Below, piece after piece: positions 46,576 through 64,000 of a stretch of DNA of 64,000 bases (its first letter is position 1; every line of letters starts with the position of its first letter). The stretch comes from a virus. Taxonomy: Duplodnaviria; Caudoviricetes. The stretch is from IMG/VR virus record IMGVR_UViG_3300016476_001378; one strand, 5' to 3'. The translations under genes were made by a program, and so were the position numbers. The notes beneath the pieces are model-generated. The model had not been told where the DNA came from, did not search any database, and saw only the letters and a list, made by a program, of their open reading frames with translations.

Positions 46576-47727
46576 TTACTTAAGCGCTTCTTCAATTTGC
46601 ATGCTTTTCTTTAGCAATCTATAACGCAATTTTTGATAACCAACTTTACAACGTGAATCTTGAGACCAAGCTAAAATACTTTTTTCTTCACCATCCAATG
46701 TAAATAAATGAGTTTTTTTCTTAGAATCTGGATTAACCCAAAGGGTTTTACCTTTATCTGGTATTACAGTCATGGCAATTTCTGGAGATACATTCCTCCT
46801 AAACAGACGATCATATAATGTATTTTTGTCCACAATACACCTTTCATCTTTAAGCCAGTCCAGATAGTGCTTGTTTTCACCCCAGGCTTCAACATATAAT
46901 CTGGAACGCAAATCTCTGTTATCTTCCTTGATGTGAGTAATATTATCTAAAATTGGTCTGATGCTACATCTGTTTACATTATATTTCAAAGATAACTCAT
47001 TGGGATTTAATCCGTTCTCATAATCATTTCTAATTTTTTCTGCAAGCTCAAAGTCAACCTTAACTGTTTGCTCTAAATAATCATCTTTATCGATATAATC
47101 AGAATAAATGTCATATTTTCTTTTGAGCCTTGTTTCTTCCGTGCTATCTTTGTATATCCAGTCTAAAAATGATTTTGTATGATTGGAACCAGTATATATT
47201 AATTCAAAATAAGTAATGTTGTCTTTGATTGATCCGCATTCTGCACCATAATGTTTTTCAAATTCTTTCTTGAGCCTTTCTATAAAAGGCAAAGTACTTA
47301 CAATTTTTACTATCAATTTTTTATCATTTGGATTGTGTGCCTGAGCCAAGCCTACGTGACCATCTCCATCAAAATATCCTCTTACAAAATGAGAAATGTA
47401 TTGTTCTGGAATTTGCTCTATCCATTTTAGATCTTGAGATTTGTGGCGCGTTAAACCAAAATTCATTAAATCTTTAGTAATTTCTTGGGATGTAATGACC
47501 ATTTGCACACTATTAGTTTTTTTACAGTAATATAAAGGCCCATCATAATCAATGAAACTTATTATTTTTTTTAAAATATAATCATCTTTACTGTGTATTT
47601 GTATTTGTATTTTGTTTTTAGATGTTGCCAAATGTCCATCAGCACAAAAAAATCCCAAAACATAAGCCATTTCATTAGACCATTGCTTGAAATAATTATG
47701 ATTTTTATTATATTTATTATTTCTCAT
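46576..47727 (-). mobile_element. Free-standing double-motif LAGLIDADG homing endonuclease gene
   Basis: AYVLGFFCADGH and HFVRGYFDGDGH motifs, C-terminal HTH-like segment and two repeats. More AT-rich than the adjacent capsid gene. Confidence 0.88.
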
Positions 47728-47820: not shown

Positions 47821-48681
47821 CTAGCTAACTGTGATTCTTGCTACAGCGTAATCGTTGATTACTGCGAAGCCGAGTTCCTCGAAGATAACCCAGCCGAGGC
47901 GGAGTCTCTTTGGATCGTCTGCAGGAAGAACGGTGATGTCCTGGCGAACAGGCATAGCACCAACGAACTGTGCAGGAGCGAGGACGTATACAGCGTTCTT
48001 AGGAACCATTGTGCTGACGTGGATGTCAGCGCTGTAGAGGTGGCCGTAAAGACCAGTCATGAGGATATCGCGTTGGGTTGCTTCATCGAAGAAGTCCTTA
48101 CCCCACATACGAACATCCTTGTAGCGCTGAGGATGCATAACAATCTTAGCACCGATTAACTCATGCTCTTCGATCAATGTCAACGCGAGGTTGATATTGT
48201 CTGGTTGAAGAGTACCAGTTACGGAGATGCTGTGGTCAGCAGGAACTGCAGCATTGATGACGCTGAATACTTCAACGTCTTCTTGGCGCTGGAGGGAATC
48301 CTTAGCACGGACCTGTGCACGGTCAACGATGTAATATCTTCTCTGGCGAATTTCGTTCAACTTGATTGTGGGGTTGGAAGCGATCTCGATAACTGGAACG
48401 AGAAGTTCTTCTGCTTCAACAACGTGTGTTGGAACGGAACCGCGCTTAGGGATAACAGCAGACTTAACTGCGATATCTCTCTCGTAGCGTGGAAGAGCAC
48501 CCTGTGGGAGCTCATCAACCATCAAAAGTTTGCGGCCAATAGCCTGGTACATGAGGGAAGTCTTGATTGGCTCAACCATTGCCTGTGCAAGTGCAACACG
48601 GCCTTCGGCTGTTTCAAGAGCTGCAGCGATTACGGCTTCCTTCTGCTCATTTACGCTTTTTGCGTTCTTAACAATACTCAT
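47821..48681 (-). CDS. Major capsid protein, HK97 fold, short (286 aa) type resembling that of Bacillus phage G
   Basis: GRKLLMVDELPQGALPRYERD E-loop, IVDRAQVRAKDSLQRQED spine helix, IVMHPQRY and GWVIFEELGFAVIN. SD AAGGAG, biased codons, position after scaffold and decoration genes. Confidence 0.9.
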   Translation of the reverse strand: MSIVKNAKSVNEQKEAVIAAALETAEGRVALAQAMVEPIKTSLMYQAIGRKLLMVDELPQGALPRYERDIAVKSAVIPKRGSVPTHVVEAEELLVPVIEIASNPTIKLNEIRQRRYYIVDRAQVRAKDSLQRQEDVEVFSVINAAVPADHSISVTGTLQPDNINLALTLIEEHELIGAKIVMHPQRYKDVRMWGKDFFDEATQRDILMTGLYGHLYSADIHVSTMVPKNAVYVLAPAQFVGAMPVRQDITVLPADDPKRLRLGWVIFEELGFAVINDYAVARITVS

Positions 48682-49418: not shown

Positions 49419-50993
49419 TTAACCTTCGAATTCTGGCTTAGAGAAAATATTCTTCAAAGCCTGCTGAAGATCTGTCGAAACATTGTTTGTTGAACCTGCA
49501 TAACCAGGGATTGTTGCCACGCCCTGCGCCGATGCTGTGCGGAGAGTCTTCTCTGCATGTGCGGACACAACGCGCTGCTCTGCACTCTGAGATACTCTCA
49601 ACATTTGAGCACCAGATGCAAGCATTGCCTTGACGGTCAAACCGTCATTTAACCACAAATCTACATTTGCTTCGACTTCATCAGCTGAAATCAAACCTGC
49701 AAGACAGAGTTTTGTGGATACGCCGTAAGCGGTCTTTAAACGAGCTCTGAAAACTTCAGCTTCCTTAGCCATGGATTCCCACTTAGCCTCAACAGCTGCA
49801 TCATCTTCCATGTCTTCTTTTTTGTCGTCTTCATCTTCTGCAATGGAAATATTCTCAATATTTGCCATCTTAGCCAAAGTGTCGATCTTAGAAGCATTGA
49901 TTTGGCGATAAAGATCCAAGCCTTCTGCGAAAGTAAGGTTGGAAATAACATCTTCTTCTACACCAGCTGTCTTAAGCTCATTGTAAAGGAATTCTTCAGC
50001 CTGATCTTCGTCAGAAAGATCAGATGCAATAACAACATTTGTGCGGCTGAGATTTTCTGTTTGTGTTGGAACTTCAAAATTACCAAATTCTGGTAAAATG
50101 CCTTGTGAAGGTGTTCCGCTAAATAAATCAAAATTAGCCTCATACATTGCAGAGTCTTCTACATTGCCGTCTTTCTTGACAGCATTTAACTCGTTCTTGA
50201 GACCAAGATGTTCTGGGTTAAGAGTTGGGACATCCTGCTTTGCAAAGGTTGGGTTTTGGTCGCGGAGGCTGTTGCCTTCGCTGCTTTGCATAGTCATTTT
50301 GTCGAACTTGCCTTCATTGCTGTACTGAGCATCTGCAGCATACTCAAAATCGGATGCAGTGCGTGTGTTTGCAAGAGAGGCAAGAATAGCTTCGCGCTGT
50401 TCGCGGGCAGTTCTATTCATGTTTTGTACCTTCCTGTTCGCTGTTGCAGGCATTTTGTCTGCGTTATCAGCGGGTAATTCTTCTGATTCTTCGGAAGTTG
50501 AATCTTCCTCTAAGTTGTCTTCTGCAACTGCACCATCACCGAAAACTTCGGCCATAGCCTTTTCGAGAGCTTGCTGGAATTCATCTACTTTATCAGCAGG
50601 TACTTCCACTTCGAGAGTCGCAACGTTGTCATCTACTTCGCCACTATCTTCCATGCCATTATCGTCCTGAACTTCATCCTCATCGGATTCAGCCATATCA
50701 TCATCATGGTCGGCATCTATATCTTTTGCGAAGTCGGCAGTCATTTGTGTGCCATGCTCGTCTGATCCCATAAACTCGCTAGGATCGATCCCCTCAGCCT
50801 CAAGTGCAGAAGGCATCATTGATTCACGATATGCAGCCGCTACGATTCTAGCTGAAGTTTCATCAAGGCCTGCTGTTTTGACTAAATCATTTACACAAGC
50901 ATTCATATCTTCGGCGTCTTCTACACGGATTTCTGCAATTCTCATTGCGCGTTTAAGAGCTTGACGTTGGGCGGTATCATTATTTAAAGCCAT
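49419..50993 (-). CDS. Putative capsid scaffolding protein, 524 aa
   Basis: Very acidic and helical, between protease and capsid genes. Amphipathic C-terminal helix DLQQALKNIF. Confidence 0.65.
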   Translation of the reverse strand: MALNNDTAQRQALKRAMRIAEIRVEDAEDMNACVNDLVKTAGLDETSARIVAAAYRESMMPSALEAEGIDPSEFMGSDEHGTQMTADFAKDIDADHDDDMAESDEDEVQDDNGMEDSGEVDDNVATLEVEVPADKVDEFQQALEKAMAEVFGDGAVAEDNLEEDSTSEESEELPADNADKMPATANRKVQNMNRTAREQREAILASLANTRTASDFEYAADAQYSNEGKFDKMTMQSSEGNSLRDQNPTFAKQDVPTLNPEHLGLKNELNAVKKDGNVEDSAMYEANFDLFSGTPSQGILPEFGNFEVPTQTENLSRTNVVIASDLSDEDQAEEFLYNELKTAGVEEDVISNLTFAEGLDLYRQINASKIDTLAKMANIENISIAEDEDDKKEDMEDDAAVEAKWESMAKEAEVFRARLKTAYGVSTKLCLAGLISADEVEANVDLWLNDGLTVKAMLASGAQMLRVSQSAEQRVVSAHAEKTLRTASAQGVATIPGYAGSTNNVSTDLQQALKNIFSKPEFEG

Positions 50994-54100: not shown

Positions 54101-55472
54101 GTGGTAAAACAAATGCTTGGTTTTGGGTCATCATTTGACCAACATTACCAGCTGGTGAATAACTTTGCTGTGCTGTTTGTGGTGCAGCGGCTGCAGCCTG
54201 TGGTTGTTGCTCAGCTAATTGACCCTGATTAATAGGGGCCTGCTGCTGACCACCAGCATCAACACCATCGTCAATCAAATCTTGCATGGTTGCCTGTAAA
54301 TCAGCCATGGATTTGGAAATTTTAGAAACGTGTGCTAAATCTACATTATCTTTTCTTGCAAACATGTTGATAATAGAAACTTCTAAGAAGTTCAATGCAA
54401 GATTGAGCATGTCTAAGATGTTTAAGCCAGAAGCAGGGTCAATTCCTAAATACTTAAGAATGTTTGTGACTGTTGCATTTTGGCCACCGCCATCACCTGC
54501 TAAAAGTGGGCCCCCTACTAATGTTTGAGCAACTCTTAATGCAGACTTGGTAGCAGCGCTAATCTGTCTTAAATCATTTTCATACTCTTTACGATCAACA
54601 ACTGTTGAAGGAATGCTGCTTGCAGCAAGCATAACATTGCTGTGAAGTTCACTAGCTTTCTTTTCCAAGGTTACAGCCTTGGTAAGAATGTCATCCTTAT
54701 CGTAAATTTCTTCAATCTCACAAGTTGGGAAAGCACCATCTCCAACAACTGACAATTCAATAAATTTGAGGCCCATGTTTTTCTCATAAACCTTCTTGCC
54801 ATTTTTTGGATTGATCTTGCCCTTAAATTTCTTTAAGTGTTCGCAGTAATCACGCTCTGTGACAGCAATATTGCCACACTCAGAACATTCTCCGCTTTCA
54901 ACTTGGCATCCCATGGAAACATCATGCATGTAACCAACGCGAATACCCCTTGCAATATCTGGATATGCCGACTCGTCTACATAAAATACAGTATAAACAC
55001 AATTCTCACTATCATCCCATTCAGCATGGACAACCATGCCCTTGGCTTCAAGAACGTCATCATTTTTATGATTTGCATAGATAGGAACGCCCTCAAAAGT
55101 CTTGTAGGCTGGCCCCTTTGTTTTAACTTTCTTGCCCTCTGAATCTGTTTGAATAATATCAACTTCTTTTAGAAGTTCAGATTTAGCAAAATAGTCTCCA
55201 TTTGCATTGACAGTATCTGCATCAATTGCTCTAGCACGAACCCAGAGAAGCTTCTCATCTCTTAGTTCATTCATAATCTTGATTACATCTGTGTCTTTGT
55301 ATTTTTCCAAAACATCATCGACTTCAGCGTAGAGTGACTGTAACCCATCCTTAGCAGCCTCTCTAATCGTTGAGGCAATGCGAAGGTTGGAATTTTTTAT
55401 TTCATTACGGTCTGTTGTATTTAAAAATGAATTTAAATTAATAAGACCTCCTGAAATGCCTTGTTTTATCAT
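51195..55472 (-). CDS. Prohead maturation protease polyprotein (HK97/herpes assemblin-fold domain, long helical region, zinc ribbons), 1425 aa
   Basis: NANGDYF, TFEGVPIYANH (His), DVSMGC (Ser), CSECGN..CEH insert and FIELSVV..GA. C-terminal CPSCG..CNSCG and CPSCG..CYSCG. Confidence 0.8.
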   Translation of the reverse strand: MIKQGISGGLINLNSFLNTTDRNEIKNSNLRIASTIREAAKDGLQSLYAEVDDVLEKYKDTDVIKIMNELRDEKLLWVRARAIDADTVNANGDYFAKSELLKEVDIIQTDSEGKKVKTKGPAYKTFEGVPIYANHKNDDVLEAKGMVVHAEWDDSENCVYTVFYVDESAYPDIARGIRVGYMHDVSMGCQVESGECSECGNIAVTERDYCEHLKKFKGKINPKNGKKVYEKNMGLKFIELSVVGDGAFPTCEIEEIYDKDDILTKAVTLEKKASELHSNVMLAASSIPSTVVDRKEYENDLRQISAATKSALRVAQTLVGGPLLAGDGGGQNATVTNILKYLGIDPASGLNILDMLNLALNFLEVSIINMFARKDNVDLAHVSKISKSMADLQATMQDLIDDGVDAGGQQQAPINQGQLAEQQPQAAAAAPQTAQQSYSPAGNVGQMMTQNQAFVLPQEMQQSIGGGAVASNNSSRMIVWSHTGEEVSRVATASTKVRGNKRENFGKALENLASALGVAAPGQVASVRAANNNQPIKTNSPTNKVSGGNKNMSIWEKFTQQRRLKQAAKATEKFELEDKMGNKIVISSKGDVEAYHNNTRIAWEPNISDMHLEAIASGNGIEVAAEFLSDFSRAVSAAKSNGRSVTSNWHPEHRETILEEALEPMHKGSYDTVIEELLGSAAAERYKRNNPAGEKSQAEEIAGVGGEVNADKLEVMEDLIENEAGLYGRNFTDDDVKEALLEDARFGNPEEVIEEQLTAVQKEHSAASASSVVKVALTALANAVVTSQVTPEEIVDVAIALASKKEFAHLVKLAQLGSKRREVVASRKSFHNKTVVLSPVAAIYNELGKVTGKEVSASDVRAVLSSAKSNYETVVNTVTAAATELVKNSNIVPTVSSIKASRTDLLKAALASVGSDDEVSREHLKTTLMAFAASVEDAMITPAEVVDAISSIDTDDLIARVEFAKSEKATADRLAARARKDFFGSTRLASANDVTENIIGWMADYSMEFGHSSKAIAEAASLTTQNPKVAENLVAKLVKTAKVQIVDEKIVTKRINCTVEDLGGIDPSSEDFEAQFRDKAMQLLSSAGYTVDPNTFSLNEVSVSADGYINASVTSRFTKTFTPDMPAEEMPEGMGAETLEGGENLGPVGQQVEDEGVIATASAKALRQAKRKEIIARFAQAVPGMGAPAMAQAPAMGAAAGANLAGGPGLSALTQPMADTDAGAADVDTDDLPEPGKKLPIGSICPSCGGKDVDLADGKGHCNSCGTDMTISYQITINPGSDTEVESGDGATAPEAPAAEAPAPEAPLGGEMGLGAATAPAPEPAAPAAPGMPGAPAMASSMPIMVRLSWKQDPEVFIRAASADFNPTTASTLPVGHICPSCGNREAKKVQAHRFCYSCGEVYIPRVHASSDDKTKVSVSIDKIV

Positions 55473-55540
55473 ATGGCTTCCTCTGTAGCGCTTGAATTAG
55501 AATTTTTTTGAAAAAATCAAAAATTAAACTCTAAATAAAC

Positions 55541-55567
55541 TATTTAGCTTATTTTAATTAGAGTCCT
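55541..55567 (-). promoter_or_regulatory. AGG-class promoter candidate for the protease gene
   Basis: GCAGGA-N17-TAAATA upstream of 55472. Confidence 0.55.
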
Positions 55568-55600
55568 GCGTTTTTCAAAATTTATACTTAAGATTGTACA

Positions 55601-55627
55601 AAAAAGCCCTCTGTTTTAGAGGGCTTT
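55601..55627 (-). terminator. Intrinsic terminator after the portal gene
   Basis: aaagccctct-gtttt-agagggcttt with a T run on the minus strand. Confidence 0.85.
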
Positions 55628-55630
55628 AGT

Positions 55631-57955
55631 TTAGCTTGCTAATTTCTTAATAGCGTTGAAGATTACTTGCACAACTTCGTGTTGCTTGTTGTCTAGTTCT
55701 TCTTCTGTAAATCTAAGAACTGTCCAACCTTGTGATGCTAGTTCCATGTCTCTGCGCTTGTCTTTGTCGATGTCTGCTGGATTAGCATGGAATTTTTTAG
55801 AATCAGCTTCTATTCCAAGTTTTAGATCAGGAATTGCGGCATCTAATTGATATTTATTATTGGGGCCAGCTTGATACTGGGCATAAATAGCAAATGGGAT
55901 GTTTTGTGCAAGAATTAAATTGTAAAGTTTTTGTTCCCAACTGGTAAACAATTGAATTGATTGAGTTGGATACTTTTTCTTTGCTGTGATAATCTTGCCT
56001 TCGCTTACTAAGCCTTGATATTCATTAACTGCATAGGCGTTAATTGGCCATGTAAATACTGTAAATCCTGGGCCTGGTTCAATTAAGGCAATCATTTCTT
56101 CAGGCATTTCTGGAAGTGGGCCAACTAAGCCTCTGCCAGTAACCTTAAACTCATGTTGTAAGAAATCTTTGTGTGCAGCAGATTTTATTCTTGCACTAGC
56201 AATTCTTGTGGAAGCGCGCTCGTTATAAACTTCTGATTGCTCATCATAAATTTCTTTAATTAAAGTAGAGGCCAATCTGTATGCTTCTGCGGGATTTTCA
56301 ACAGATGCTAGGGCTGGCAAACCAGCAGGAGCCCCTAAACCAGCAGGAGCTGGTAAAGCACCTGGGGAAGGAGGCATTCCTAATCCACCGTCAAGTCCCA
56401 TTCCAGCAGGGGCTCCATAACCCATGCCTGATACACTACCTAAGCCAGCAATTGTATTAGGTGTAACAACATTTGCAGCTTGCTCATAGCGAAGTCTTTC
56501 AACTTCTTGGTCAAAGTCAATGTTGAAATATTCATACATTGTTTGAGCAGAGATTTTACCATTTTTAAATAAGTCTGCTAAAACTTGAATTACACCAGTG
56601 TTGTCTCTTAGTTGGGTGTCATCCCATTTGATGGAAGGATAAATAAATTCATCTTCGCCTCTGTCGCCCTTCGTTGTGAAACCATTCCACATAGCAACTT
56701 GGCGGAAAATTCTTTCCTCAATCCAATAAGCAACTTGGTTTCTGATCTGATCCAGTCTCTTGTTTAAGGCTAACAAACCAACTTGTGCATTAGAATAAGA
56801 GGGGCCATCACCATTAATGATAGCTTTATTTAATGAGAGAGCATTGATAAACTCTGTTTCAATGCCTTCCATCTCATTTGTGATTGGGAGAATTTTACTG
56901 TTTGCACCAACAAAATCAAAATCAACAGCGTGGTGAGTAACAATAGTAAGAAGTGGATCCATTGCAACATTTGCAAGTTCTTCTTGCATTGTTTCAAGGT
57001 CTTCTTCACTAGCAGGGCGATTATCATTACCAATTTTGACCATCTTGATTGGTAGAATGTGTCTTTCTGCTATAAGCCATTGTGCTGTTCTAAGTTTGTC
57101 CTTATAAGCATAAACGCCCATAAGTCTCTTGAGAATGGATGTTCCATAAGGGGCAAAAGCAGATGAACCATGCTTTAGATGCCAAACAGCCTCATTTGAA
57201 AGCTTAATTGGCTGCCCTTGGAGAATAATTGGTCTTAATGCTTCTGGAATTGCATTATATTGTTCTGCTGGTTGTTGCTCTCTTACAATTCTTACCAAAT
57301 TTTCATCTGGAGTGTAGAAATAAGAAGCTGGCATGTCACCAAAGCCAGGTGTAATTTCAATATAGTCAGGATTTAAAATATCAATGTGGCTGATGGTTCC
57401 GCCTTCGTGGTCACATTGGTTGCCTTTAGCATCTGTTCCTAAGCCTTCACACTTTGGACAAGAAATTGTAGCAAATAAAATAACATCACCATGCAAATAA
57501 TAATGGTGAGCAATTTGCGGCATCAAGCTTACAAGATTTAATTTTTTTGAAAGCTTTTCAAAGTAACCTTTGACGTAAGGTGACCCACATTCAATCTTAA
57601 ATCCAGCCAAGGGGAAATCTGAATAAAAGTCAATACCAGCAGCAACGATAGGTTCATTGTCATAAATCCATTGGGCCCAAGTATAAACTTCTTTTCTGTT
57701 TGTTGGTACTTGGAAAGCCTGGGGCTGAGTAAACGGAGTATAGAAATTTGGAGAAGTGTAAGTTGTATTTACTTGAGCAGTTCTCATTGCTTGTCTAGCT
57801 CTTGAATCCATAAGATTCATAGATCTAGCGCCAGGTAAAGACCTACCTGATTTTTCAGAAGGCATCATTCCAGAGACTTCTCTGCCTGTAACTTCAGCTG
57901 TTGCTCTTCTTAAAACACTTGTAAGTGTTGGTATATTCTCTTTACCTTTTGGCAC
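55631..57955 (-). CDS. Portal protein with a C-terminal DUF559/Vsr-like endonuclease domain, 774 aa
   Basis: Portal motifs (YDNEPIVAAGIDFYSDFP, ILNPDYIEI, VWHLKH..PYGTSIL, YPSIKWD, ISAQTMYEYFNIDFDQEVERL). C-terminal YQLDAAIPDLKLGIEADSKKFH..DKRRDMELASQGWTVLRF. GTG start, SD GAGG. Confidence 0.85.
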   Translation of the reverse strand: MPKGKENIPTLTSVLRRATAEVTGREVSGMMPSEKSGRSLPGARSMNLMDSRARQAMRTAQVNTTYTSPNFYTPFTQPQAFQVPTNRKEVYTWAQWIYDNEPIVAAGIDFYSDFPLAGFKIECGSPYVKGYFEKLSKKLNLVSLMPQIAHHYYLHGDVILFATISCPKCEGLGTDAKGNQCDHEGGTISHIDILNPDYIEITPGFGDMPASYFYTPDENLVRIVREQQPAEQYNAIPEALRPIILQGQPIKLSNEAVWHLKHGSSAFAPYGTSILKRLMGVYAYKDKLRTAQWLIAERHILPIKMVKIGNDNRPASEEDLETMQEELANVAMDPLLTIVTHHAVDFDFVGANSKILPITNEMEGIETEFINALSLNKAIINGDGPSYSNAQVGLLALNKRLDQIRNQVAYWIEERIFRQVAMWNGFTTKGDRGEDEFIYPSIKWDDTQLRDNTGVIQVLADLFKNGKISAQTMYEYFNIDFDQEVERLRYEQAANVVTPNTIAGLGSVSGMGYGAPAGMGLDGGLGMPPSPGALPAPAGLGAPAGLPALASVENPAEAYRLASTLIKEIYDEQSEVYNERASTRIASARIKSAAHKDFLQHEFKVTGRGLVGPLPEMPEEMIALIEPGPGFTVFTWPINAYAVNEYQGLVSEGKIITAKKKYPTQSIQLFTSWEQKLYNLILAQNIPFAIYAQYQAGPNNKYQLDAAIPDLKLGIEADSKKFHANPADIDKDKRRDMELASQGWTVLRFTEEELDNKQHEVVQVIFNAIKKLAS

Positions 57956-57979: not shown

Positions 57980-58008
57980 ATTATACAAAATTTAATAACC
58001 GATGGCAA
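57980..58008 (-). promoter_or_regulatory. Sigma70/SigA-like promoter upstream of the portal gene
   Basis: TTGCCA-17 nt-TATAAT on the minus strand. Confidence 0.65.
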
Positions 58009-63202: not shown

Positions 63203-63574
63203 TTATTTCGACTTATCCTTCGGAATAACAATAAGATTATTATTATGATATTTTATTATATCACCAATATCAATCCCATTTTTATCAAAGGCTCCTTTTT
63301 TTGCCTCGACAACAAATCGAGAGGGCCGAGAAGAAGCCACTGGTTTTTCAGATTCTGCTTTTAATTCACCAAAATCTACCACACGACCCGTATCGTCTAA
63401 GAATGCCAAGCTCAAATCAAAACTAACATTCTTATTCCAAAAAGAAAGATTGTCAGAACAAGGAAAAATAAAAAATACAACTTCATCATCTTCGAGAGGT
63501 TCGGCAAACATTAAGCCCTTTGCTCTCTTAGCATCGTTGTCAGCTATAAATCTTATTCTAAATTTCTTTTCCAT
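63203..63574 (-). CDS. DUF192-family protein
   Basis: AD...RAKGLMF..FIF..SFWNKNVSFDLSLAFLD..G.V..RFVVE..G..IGD. ATG at 63574 preferred over the track's overlapping TTG at 63592. Confidence 0.88.
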   Translation of the reverse strand: MEKKFRIRFIADNDAKRAKGLMFAEPLEDDEVVFFIFPCSDNLSFWNKNVSFDLSLAFLDDTGRVVDFGELKAESEKPVASSRPSRFVVEAKKGAFDKNGIDIGDIIKYHNNNLIVIPKDKSK

Positions 63575-63581
63575 GTTTATT

Positions 63582-64000
63582 TTAATCCACAAGCATCATA
63601 TTTAGCTGTTCCAAATTTTTCTGCATTGAAACAAGCCTTTCATAAATCATGTCAGCCTGTTGATGGTCACCATCTTCATCGAGATTTCGAGCTTTGACTA
63701 CCAAATCTTGTATGTCTTTCATTAAAGAACCATACGCTGTCTTGGTTTGTCCCCTCAAGCCATACAACTCCCACTCTCTACGAGATGGGGAATAAGCAAA
63801 AGGAATTAAGCCCGCTTTTTTATTCTCATATTCAGTTGTAAGCCATTTAGTAATTGTCTTCACATCCGCATACTTCAAAGGTTTAAGTTCGTATTTGTGT
63901 CCCTCTGGATGGGCTACAAACGGCCTTCTTGAAGAAGAAAATAAAGTAGCAACTACTTTTTCTATAATAATTTTAGAATCTGTTTCAGATTCTTCTAACT
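63582..64000 (-). CDS. Hypothetical protein, 5' end beyond the right edge
   Basis: The frame of track ORF 63582..63878 stays open to the window edge. Ends in a KARNLDEDGDHQQADMI helical hairpin. Confidence 0.7.
   Translation of the reverse strand, partial: LEESETDSKIIIEKVVATLFSSSRRPFVAHPEGHKYELKPLKYADVKTITKWLTTEYENKKAGLIPFAYSPSRREWELYGLRGQTKTAYGSLMKDIQDLVVKARNLDEDGDHQQADMIYERLVSMQKNLEQLNMMLVD

Follow-up and report, generated by a model that had tools for sequence, protein, structure and literature searches.

Why should the gene for a phage portal end in a nuclease? Portals are viewed as non-enzymatic channels, and the nucleases involved in packaging are thought to act from outside. The window, the whole stretch of 64,000 nucleotides that was analysed, comes from an uncultured freshwater giant phage, and its portal would put a nuclease inside the virus head. 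The original prediction, made from the letters alone, described a portal with a C-terminal DUF559/Vsr-like endonuclease in a single frame. Profiles, fold and a continuous open reading frame (ORF) of 774 aa all agree with that description. The coordinates proposed for it, 55631-56460, lie inside the fusion gene but only cover residues ~499-774, i.e., the last third of the ORF at 55631-57955.

Layout and identity of the portal-nuclease gene

The gene and its parts are as follows.

55631..57955, minus strand: portal-nuclease fusion gene, 774 aa, one continuous ORF with a GTG start
57773..57955, minus strand: variable N-terminal leader, residues 1-61, with R-T-A at 58-60 as a candidate propeptide cleavage site
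56471..57772, minus strand: portal core, residues 62-495, phage G gp14-like by profile and structure matches
57407..57460, minus strand: putative zinc-ribbon insertion (CxxC...CxH) in the portal core, residues 166-183
56297..56470, minus strand: disordered G/P/M/A-rich tether, residues 496-553, without cleavage motifs (pLDDT <50, motif counts)
55952..56296, minus strand: conserved "mid" segment, residues 554-668, 115 aa, a candidate propeptide with K/R-x-A at A562, A586 and A593
55640..55951, minus strand: DUF559/EDxHD-type PD-(D/E)XK nuclease domain, residues 669-772, with predicted catalytic residues E674, D705, E716, D718, H723 and D732

Several lines of evidence identify the core as a portal. 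The fusion protein matches Portal_Mu at residues 244-479 (Pfam, E 5.8e-10) and the portal family PHROG 16240 (E 5.1e-40), and phage G gp14 is 30.7% identical to the core over residues 63-494. The best 50 Foldseek matches in the PDB are portal or neck structures throughout. At the other end, DUF559 (PF04480) is found at residues 671-769 with an E value of 4.1e-10 and 39.9 bits, against a Pfam cut-off of 20.6. The Pfam scan of the fusion protein returned the portal and DUF559 only, with no Hint/intein family match and no NUMOD-type DNA-binding module. The ~105-aa nuclease domain free of intein motifs is thus confirmed, and the G/P/M-rich linker expected at about 56300-56450 maps to the tether. 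In the AlphaFold model of the full protein (pLDDT 72, pTM 0.56), residues 498-551 are disordered, with a pLDDT <50.

Of 115 nuclease-fused portals, 114 show the CxxC...CxH pattern. It was seen in neither of two unfused portals, phage G gp14 and the LR745208 portal. This zinc-ribbon-like insertion might serve the nuclease or DNA as a docking site.

Known portals are dodecamers, and up to 12 copies of the domain would hence be present per prohead, at the crown. The C-terminus of the fusion, with its nuclease, should face the capsid lumen, since the stem, wing and crown of known portals lie inside the capsid (PMC9958956).

Fold, inheritance and distribution of the nuclease

The closest structure match of the nuclease is the DUF559 protein 3HRL (VIA Z 9.6, rmsd 1.9 A over 93), followed by the homing endonuclease I-Bth0305I, 3R3P (VIA Z 9.3, rmsd 2.7 A over 97), and by Vsr, 1CW0 (VIA Z 8.1). 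The comparison with TnsA reached only Z 4.9; the corresponding search with PF08722 gave no match anywhere, its positive controls being likewise silent. The active-site set of I-Bth0305I comprises D196, N208, H213, D222 and E170 (PMC3239194). A gap-free profile alignment places E716, D718, H723 and D732 on I-Bth0305I E206, N208, H213 and D222, and D705 and E674 were assigned to its D196 and E170 by spacing and fold. All but one of 295 homologues (294) retain these residues, and the lone exception is a protein that ends in unrelated sequence; so do 75-77 of 77 deep rows (clusters <50% identity). Homodimer prediction for the domain gave a score of 0.00, which carries no weight for or against a dimer.

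The description as Vsr-like holds for the fold. It need not extend to function, as residues 669-774 contain no Cys and mismatch nicking is not implied when the Vsr zinc motif is missing. Judged from its sequence, the domain has a Vsr/EDxHD fold, yet is neither Vsr nor a homing endonuclease.

Selection on the domain was estimated from 56 disjoint close pairs. The nuclease has a dN/dS of 0.026 and the portal core one of 0.022, while the mid segment reaches 0.088 and the tether 0.114. When trees were built from 115 sequences, the portal tree reproduced 13 of the 14 strong nuclease splits and was compatible with all 14; a 105-column slice of the portal, taken as a control, showed the same split agreement. 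Because its dN/dS is near that of the portal core and the trees are congruent, the nuclease is regarded as a domesticated enzyme, predicted to be catalytically intact, and not as a mobile, decaying or homing element. A degraded and inactive domain, which would have spoken against the original prediction, is at odds with the near-complete catalytic set and the low dN/dS.

The fusion occurs throughout the lineage. A search in related phages, as the prediction had advised, recovered the fused portal-nuclease in 152 of 163 clade loci, with nine cut by contig ends and two broken, and near-complete records of the clade measure 347-479 kb. Broken copies, three in all, carry an in-frame TGA without a good restart (L058) or frameshifts (L166 and L199). 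No two of the breaks share a position, and errors or defective copies are what they look like; natural split genes were rejected in view of the frameshifts and the TGA. Contigs from other samples span the core-linker-nuclease junctions without an indel or joint (X6 record 56046-57172, X2 record 55042-56428), and DNA of the fusion was found in freshwater, reservoir and estuary runs of 15 studies. RNA runs were set aside, consisting of contigs only and probably of DNA. The fusion is therefore neither an artefact nor unique to this genome.

Protein searches gave the same picture. They yielded 193 relatives, with a DUF559/MTES_1575 annotation on 119 of the best 120, and the portal core alone as query retrieved the same architecture. 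All complete homologues carry one and the same C-terminal domain, with no domain swapping. When a nuclease-only profile was run against 1.84 billion proteins, 74 of the best 150 matches had at least 450 aa and 73 of these 74 contained the portal core, and most of the short matches were fragments carrying the same linker. On this basis, the domain is, by sequence comparison, a portal-specific family.

Both folds are already known, and so are accessory packaging nucleases as a kind. What appears to be undescribed is a nuclease joined covalently to the inner end of the portal. Literature searches, whose coverage left out most subscription papers, found no description of such a fusion, and the ESM Atlas holds only automatically named DUF559/portal clusters with 104 and 52 members. 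The moraphages appear to be another, T4-like lineage (PMC12619734).

Some observations concern the hosts and the history of the lineage. An entire head module is located at 135-158 kb of a 1.36-Mb Armatimonadota MAG contig with a bacterial ruvC (L164, JAFDWS010000002.1). This contig is a giant provirus or a chimeric assembly, and Armatimonadota are a host lead; the large terminase subunit (TerL) of a 479-kb phage is 77% identical to that of L164. Deep-branching portals (P0186, P0213, P0308 and others) contain up to four inteins at recurring positions of the core, giving proteins of up to 2600 aa, and still keep the terminal nuclease intact.

Tether, mid segment and the head module

The portal gene stands ahead of the protease, scaffold and capsid genes in the head module, of which the following features are relevant here.

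57980..58008, minus strand: sigma-70-like promoter match (11/12, by consensus only) upstream of the portal gene
55597..55627, minus strand: hairpin followed by a T run, terminator-like, directly after the portal stop codon
51195..55472, minus strand: prohead protease with a long C-terminal extension, likely the processing enzyme (PHROG 18299, E 3.1e-16)
49419..50993, minus strand: probable scaffold, K/R-x-A-rich (7 vs 1.4 expected), before the decoration and capsid genes
47821..48681, minus strand: major capsid protein, phage G gp27-like (PHROG 2522, E 1.3e-70)

The gap between portal and protease ORFs is at most 300 bp in 121 of 136 loci, usually with no ORF in between. No small immunity-type ORF was seen between the portal stop and the protease gene in the window. 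The prohead protease (1425 aa) consists of a ~250-aa protease domain and a long extension with acidic repeats and many K/R-x-A sites, and ends in two Cys-rich, zinc-ribbon-like motifs. A free-standing LAGLIDADG endonuclease gene (46576-47727, minus strand) directly follows the major capsid gene, likewise in the P0044 contig. A DUF192 gene (63203-63592, minus strand) is located a few genes upstream of the portal and is conserved in all contexts examined. Phage G gp15 was considered as a MuF-like protein or a homologue of the mid segment and discarded, with no Pfam or PHROG match and an hhalign probability of 0.25%.

The clustered cleavage sites announced by the original prediction are present as quoted, namely in the stretches YRLAST (559-564), RASTRIAS..KSAAH (580-595) and IITAKK (655-660), but they belong to the mid segment and not to the G/P/M tether. 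Across 58 representatives, the tether holds no strict K/R-x-A motif, and the mid segment holds 80 compared to 15.5 expected. The motif is found at A562 in 50 of 57 representatives, at A586-A593 in 39, and at the end of the leader in 41 (6.8 by shuffle). Just before the nuclease the signal is weaker (31/57 vs 22 expected), and the window phage has I-T-A there.

Is K/R-x-A a processing site? Within the window, the proteins enriched in K/R-[TVIL]-A are the scaffold, the protease, the portal and three upstream proteins; tail and baseplate proteins show no such enrichment. When all i,i+2 pairs were ranked without bias in independent relatives, R-x-A came out at the top in internal head proteins (1152 vs 518), with E-x-L as the second most enriched pair. 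Five internal head families have a 3- to 4-fold enrichment of R-x-A, which capsid and decoration proteins do not share; it is likewise present in phage G gp7, gp11, gp14, gp19 and gp21. By analogy with SPN3US, whose prohead-protease motif is A-X-E (PMC10052503), K/R-x-A is probably a prohead-protease site. The motif would also predict which sites a prohead protease of the phage G type recognises.

In the model of this region, the sites do not lie in a loose linker. Folded alone, residues 550-774 reach a pLDDT of 87.6 and a pTM of 0.85, and this single AlphaFold model suggests that the site-bearing mid segment packs onto the nuclease. Covariation between the two supports the packing weakly, the alignment being shallow (Neff 55). 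No family match was found for the mid segment.

Release of the nuclease is not general either, even if K/R-x-A behaves like a prohead-protease signature. In 53 of 76 deep-branching fused portals, the linker is short and the mid segment is missing; a strict site lies between portal and nuclease in only 3 of these 53, and 24 have one in the tail after the nuclease. Most relatives carry a basic patch before the nuclease, the final 35 residues of the linker containing a median of 6-7 K/R. Because the deep relatives have no mid segment and mostly no release sites, the nuclease of much of the lineage probably acts while still on its tether. The simplest reading of the alignments is that the window's subgroup added a cleavable module in front of the nuclease.

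A possible role for the nuclease inside the head

What might the enzyme do there? The reading to which we give an even chance is that of an accessory nuclease which would nick or trim DNA during packaging, on the lumen side of the portal. Built into the crown of each prohead in up to 12 copies, the nuclease would meet the DNA leaving the channel on a flexible tether of ~60 aa. Its possible tasks include torsion relief, genome-end processing, or the removal of flaps, branches and heteroduplex from the recombination-dependent replication of a 350-480 kb genome. It would have to be substrate-restricted or switched; otherwise, the genome would be destroyed. In the window's subgroup, the mid segment could pack on the nuclease, be clipped by the prohead protease at the K/R-x-A sites, and plausibly keep the nuclease off until shell closure. 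The complete scheme, in which up to 12 tethered nucleases form a ring that nicks, trims or proof-reads the genome inside the head, and the subgroup's enzyme is made as a zymogen whose wrap-around propeptide is removed by the prohead protease after the shell has closed, is put forward tentatively and may well be wrong in this form.

Evidence for the packaging reading comes from the deep relatives, which keep the nuclease without release sites, from co-inheritance with the portal, and from selection as strong as on the core. Precedents exist. T4 gp49 binds the portal and releases branched DNA that has stalled (PMC9958956), T4 gp4 is a REase-fold DNase required in packaging (PMC7824862), and HNH proteins encoded next to terminase/portal genes are further accessory packaging nucleases (PMC12967558). 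Site-specific nicks are present in virion DNA (PMC11780129), and the portal nuclease is a candidate source of them.

Other results weigh against packaging. All three acidic motifs of the RNase H fold are intact in four related TerL proteins (the phage's own TerL lies outside the window), so that no essential cut is visibly missing. A substitute for the terminase nuclease was rejected for the same reason, and the portal nuclease is to be seen as supplementing that of the terminase. The 497-kb genome of phage G is packaged through a nuclease-free, P/G-tailed portal. An Endonuclease VII family match is present in two of five genomes; RuvC gave no match in four phage records, which says little given the divergence of phage resolvases. 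The weightiest objection is topological: branched DNA would be held up at the portal and never get to a lumen-side enzyme, so that the analogy with T4 gp49 fits poorly, and phage G does without the domain.

No over-represented word that might serve as a nick site is shared across the genomes compared, which also counts against packaging. GGGGCC, which the original prediction had linked to the nuclease, occurs 47 times in the genes of the window, on both strands, against 5.5 expected from synonymous shuffles. Only the 98%-identical locus L084 shares this enrichment; in other genomes the top words differ or there are none. GGGGCC was therefore rejected as a clade-wide target of the nuclease. Over the window (1-64000), GGGGCC/GGCCCC occurs 50 times, about 9-fold over expectation, with a gap at 46.4-54.2 kb, and ATAT, CATATG, CCGG and GGWCC are depleted. 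The close relatives L085/L096 have the related word GGGGGCA. AGATTGTG is enriched in G002 (L182-L185; 68 vs 8.8) and CGATCA in G003 (L186-L189; 101 vs 35); both may be repeats or host-methylation words.

Four other explanations were considered. The nuclease could be an ejected effector, freed by the protease as a ~13-25 kDa fragment that enters the host with the DNA, the portal being a fixed-copy vehicle. Its targets would be host or competitor DNA, or the ends of the incoming genome, and it would act in the manner of MuF toxins or of the internal proteins of T4 and SPN3US. The K/R-x-A sites conserved between portal and nuclease in the subgroup (A562 above all) would suit such a release, jumbo-phage heads do hold ejected, protease-processed proteins (PMC10052503), and the nuclease occupies the post-portal slot of MuF toxin genes (PMC5576092), with no MuF match in five genomes. 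This explanation seems unlikely, in view of the rarity of a strict site in the short-linker deep relatives, the lack of C-terminal polymorphism, the narrow gap to the protease gene with little room for an immunity gene, and a dN/dS unlike that of an arms-race protein. A morphogenetic role fits better than a MuF-type toxin, because the domain is constant, selection is at the level of the portal, and a downstream ORF is usually lacking. Alternatively, the tethered nuclease might act as a gate between self and non-self, cutting unmodified DNA of host, satellite or competitor as it enters the head and aborting mispackaging. The channel exit is an ideal position for it, REase-fold nucleases that are paired with DNA-modifying enzymes are proposed components of jumbo-phage restriction (PMC7824862), and such a gate would account for the phage's own DNA surviving 12 nucleases. 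It is nonetheless quite unlikely, as the invariance of the domain across hosts and a GC content of 33 to 56% would demand a shared modification.

A use without catalysis, in which the fold serves only as a binding site or anchor at the crown, for DNA or for a partner protein, would spare the full head the risk that an active nuclease brings and would agree with the basic patch before the domain. It is very unlikely, given six predicted catalytic residues that are near-invariant across clusters <50% identity. Lastly, the domain might be a homing endonuclease, selfish or in decay, that became joined to the portal gene, or the fusion might be an artefact of assembly. This is scarcely credible, even though the closest solved relative of known function is I-Bth0305I, inteins often invade the lineage's portals, and three broken copies exist. 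The congruent trees, the dN/dS equal to that of the core and the presence of the domain in essentially every complete portal largely refute a mobile or decaying element; there is no Hint domain, intron or NUMOD module, independent contigs bridge the fusion, and the three breaks differ in place.

That phages of 300-480 kb have retained an enzyme on the inner side of the portal throughout a deep lineage implies a packaging or entry step missing from current models. The nuclease is one small domain and is open to expression and assay.

Among cultured relatives, the closest is phage G of Bacillus/Lysinibacillus (Donellivirus gee; Portal_Mu, PF06074). Its gp14 has a P/G-rich C-terminal tail, its head proteins carry K/R-x-A, and its head module has a similar make-up, i.e., portal, protease, scaffold-like gene, decoration and capsid. 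In contrast to the window's portal, gp14 stops after the tail, with neither nuclease nor CxxC...CxH insertion; the LR745208 portal has neither a P/G-rich tail nor a nuclease. As in MuF polymorphic toxins, a head-bound nuclease is encoded right behind the portal sequence (PMC5576092). Unlike them, the fusion has no MuF domain (PF04233 matched neither the fusion protein nor five related genomes, where the control matched in 5), no variable toxin tip and generally no immunity ORF.

T4 gp49 (Endo VII, which binds the portal gp20), the T4 head-completion nuclease gp4 and the HNH proteins also represent a second packaging-linked nuclease besides the terminase. They are, however, separate proteins of other families, without a covalent bond to the portal at its lumen-side end. 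The E. coli Vsr mismatch nickase (1CW0) has the same fold and equivalent catalytic Asp/His/Asp residues (PMC3239194), but the portal nuclease has no zinc motif and no dcm neighbour, and E716 replaces Vsr Phe62, as in the EDxHD family. I-Bth0305I (3R3P) and the DUF559 protein NGO0050 (3HRL) share both fold and catalytic register with the portal nuclease. Unlike I-Bth0305I, it comes without a NUMOD arm, intron or intein, and it is passed on vertically in fusion with a structural protein.
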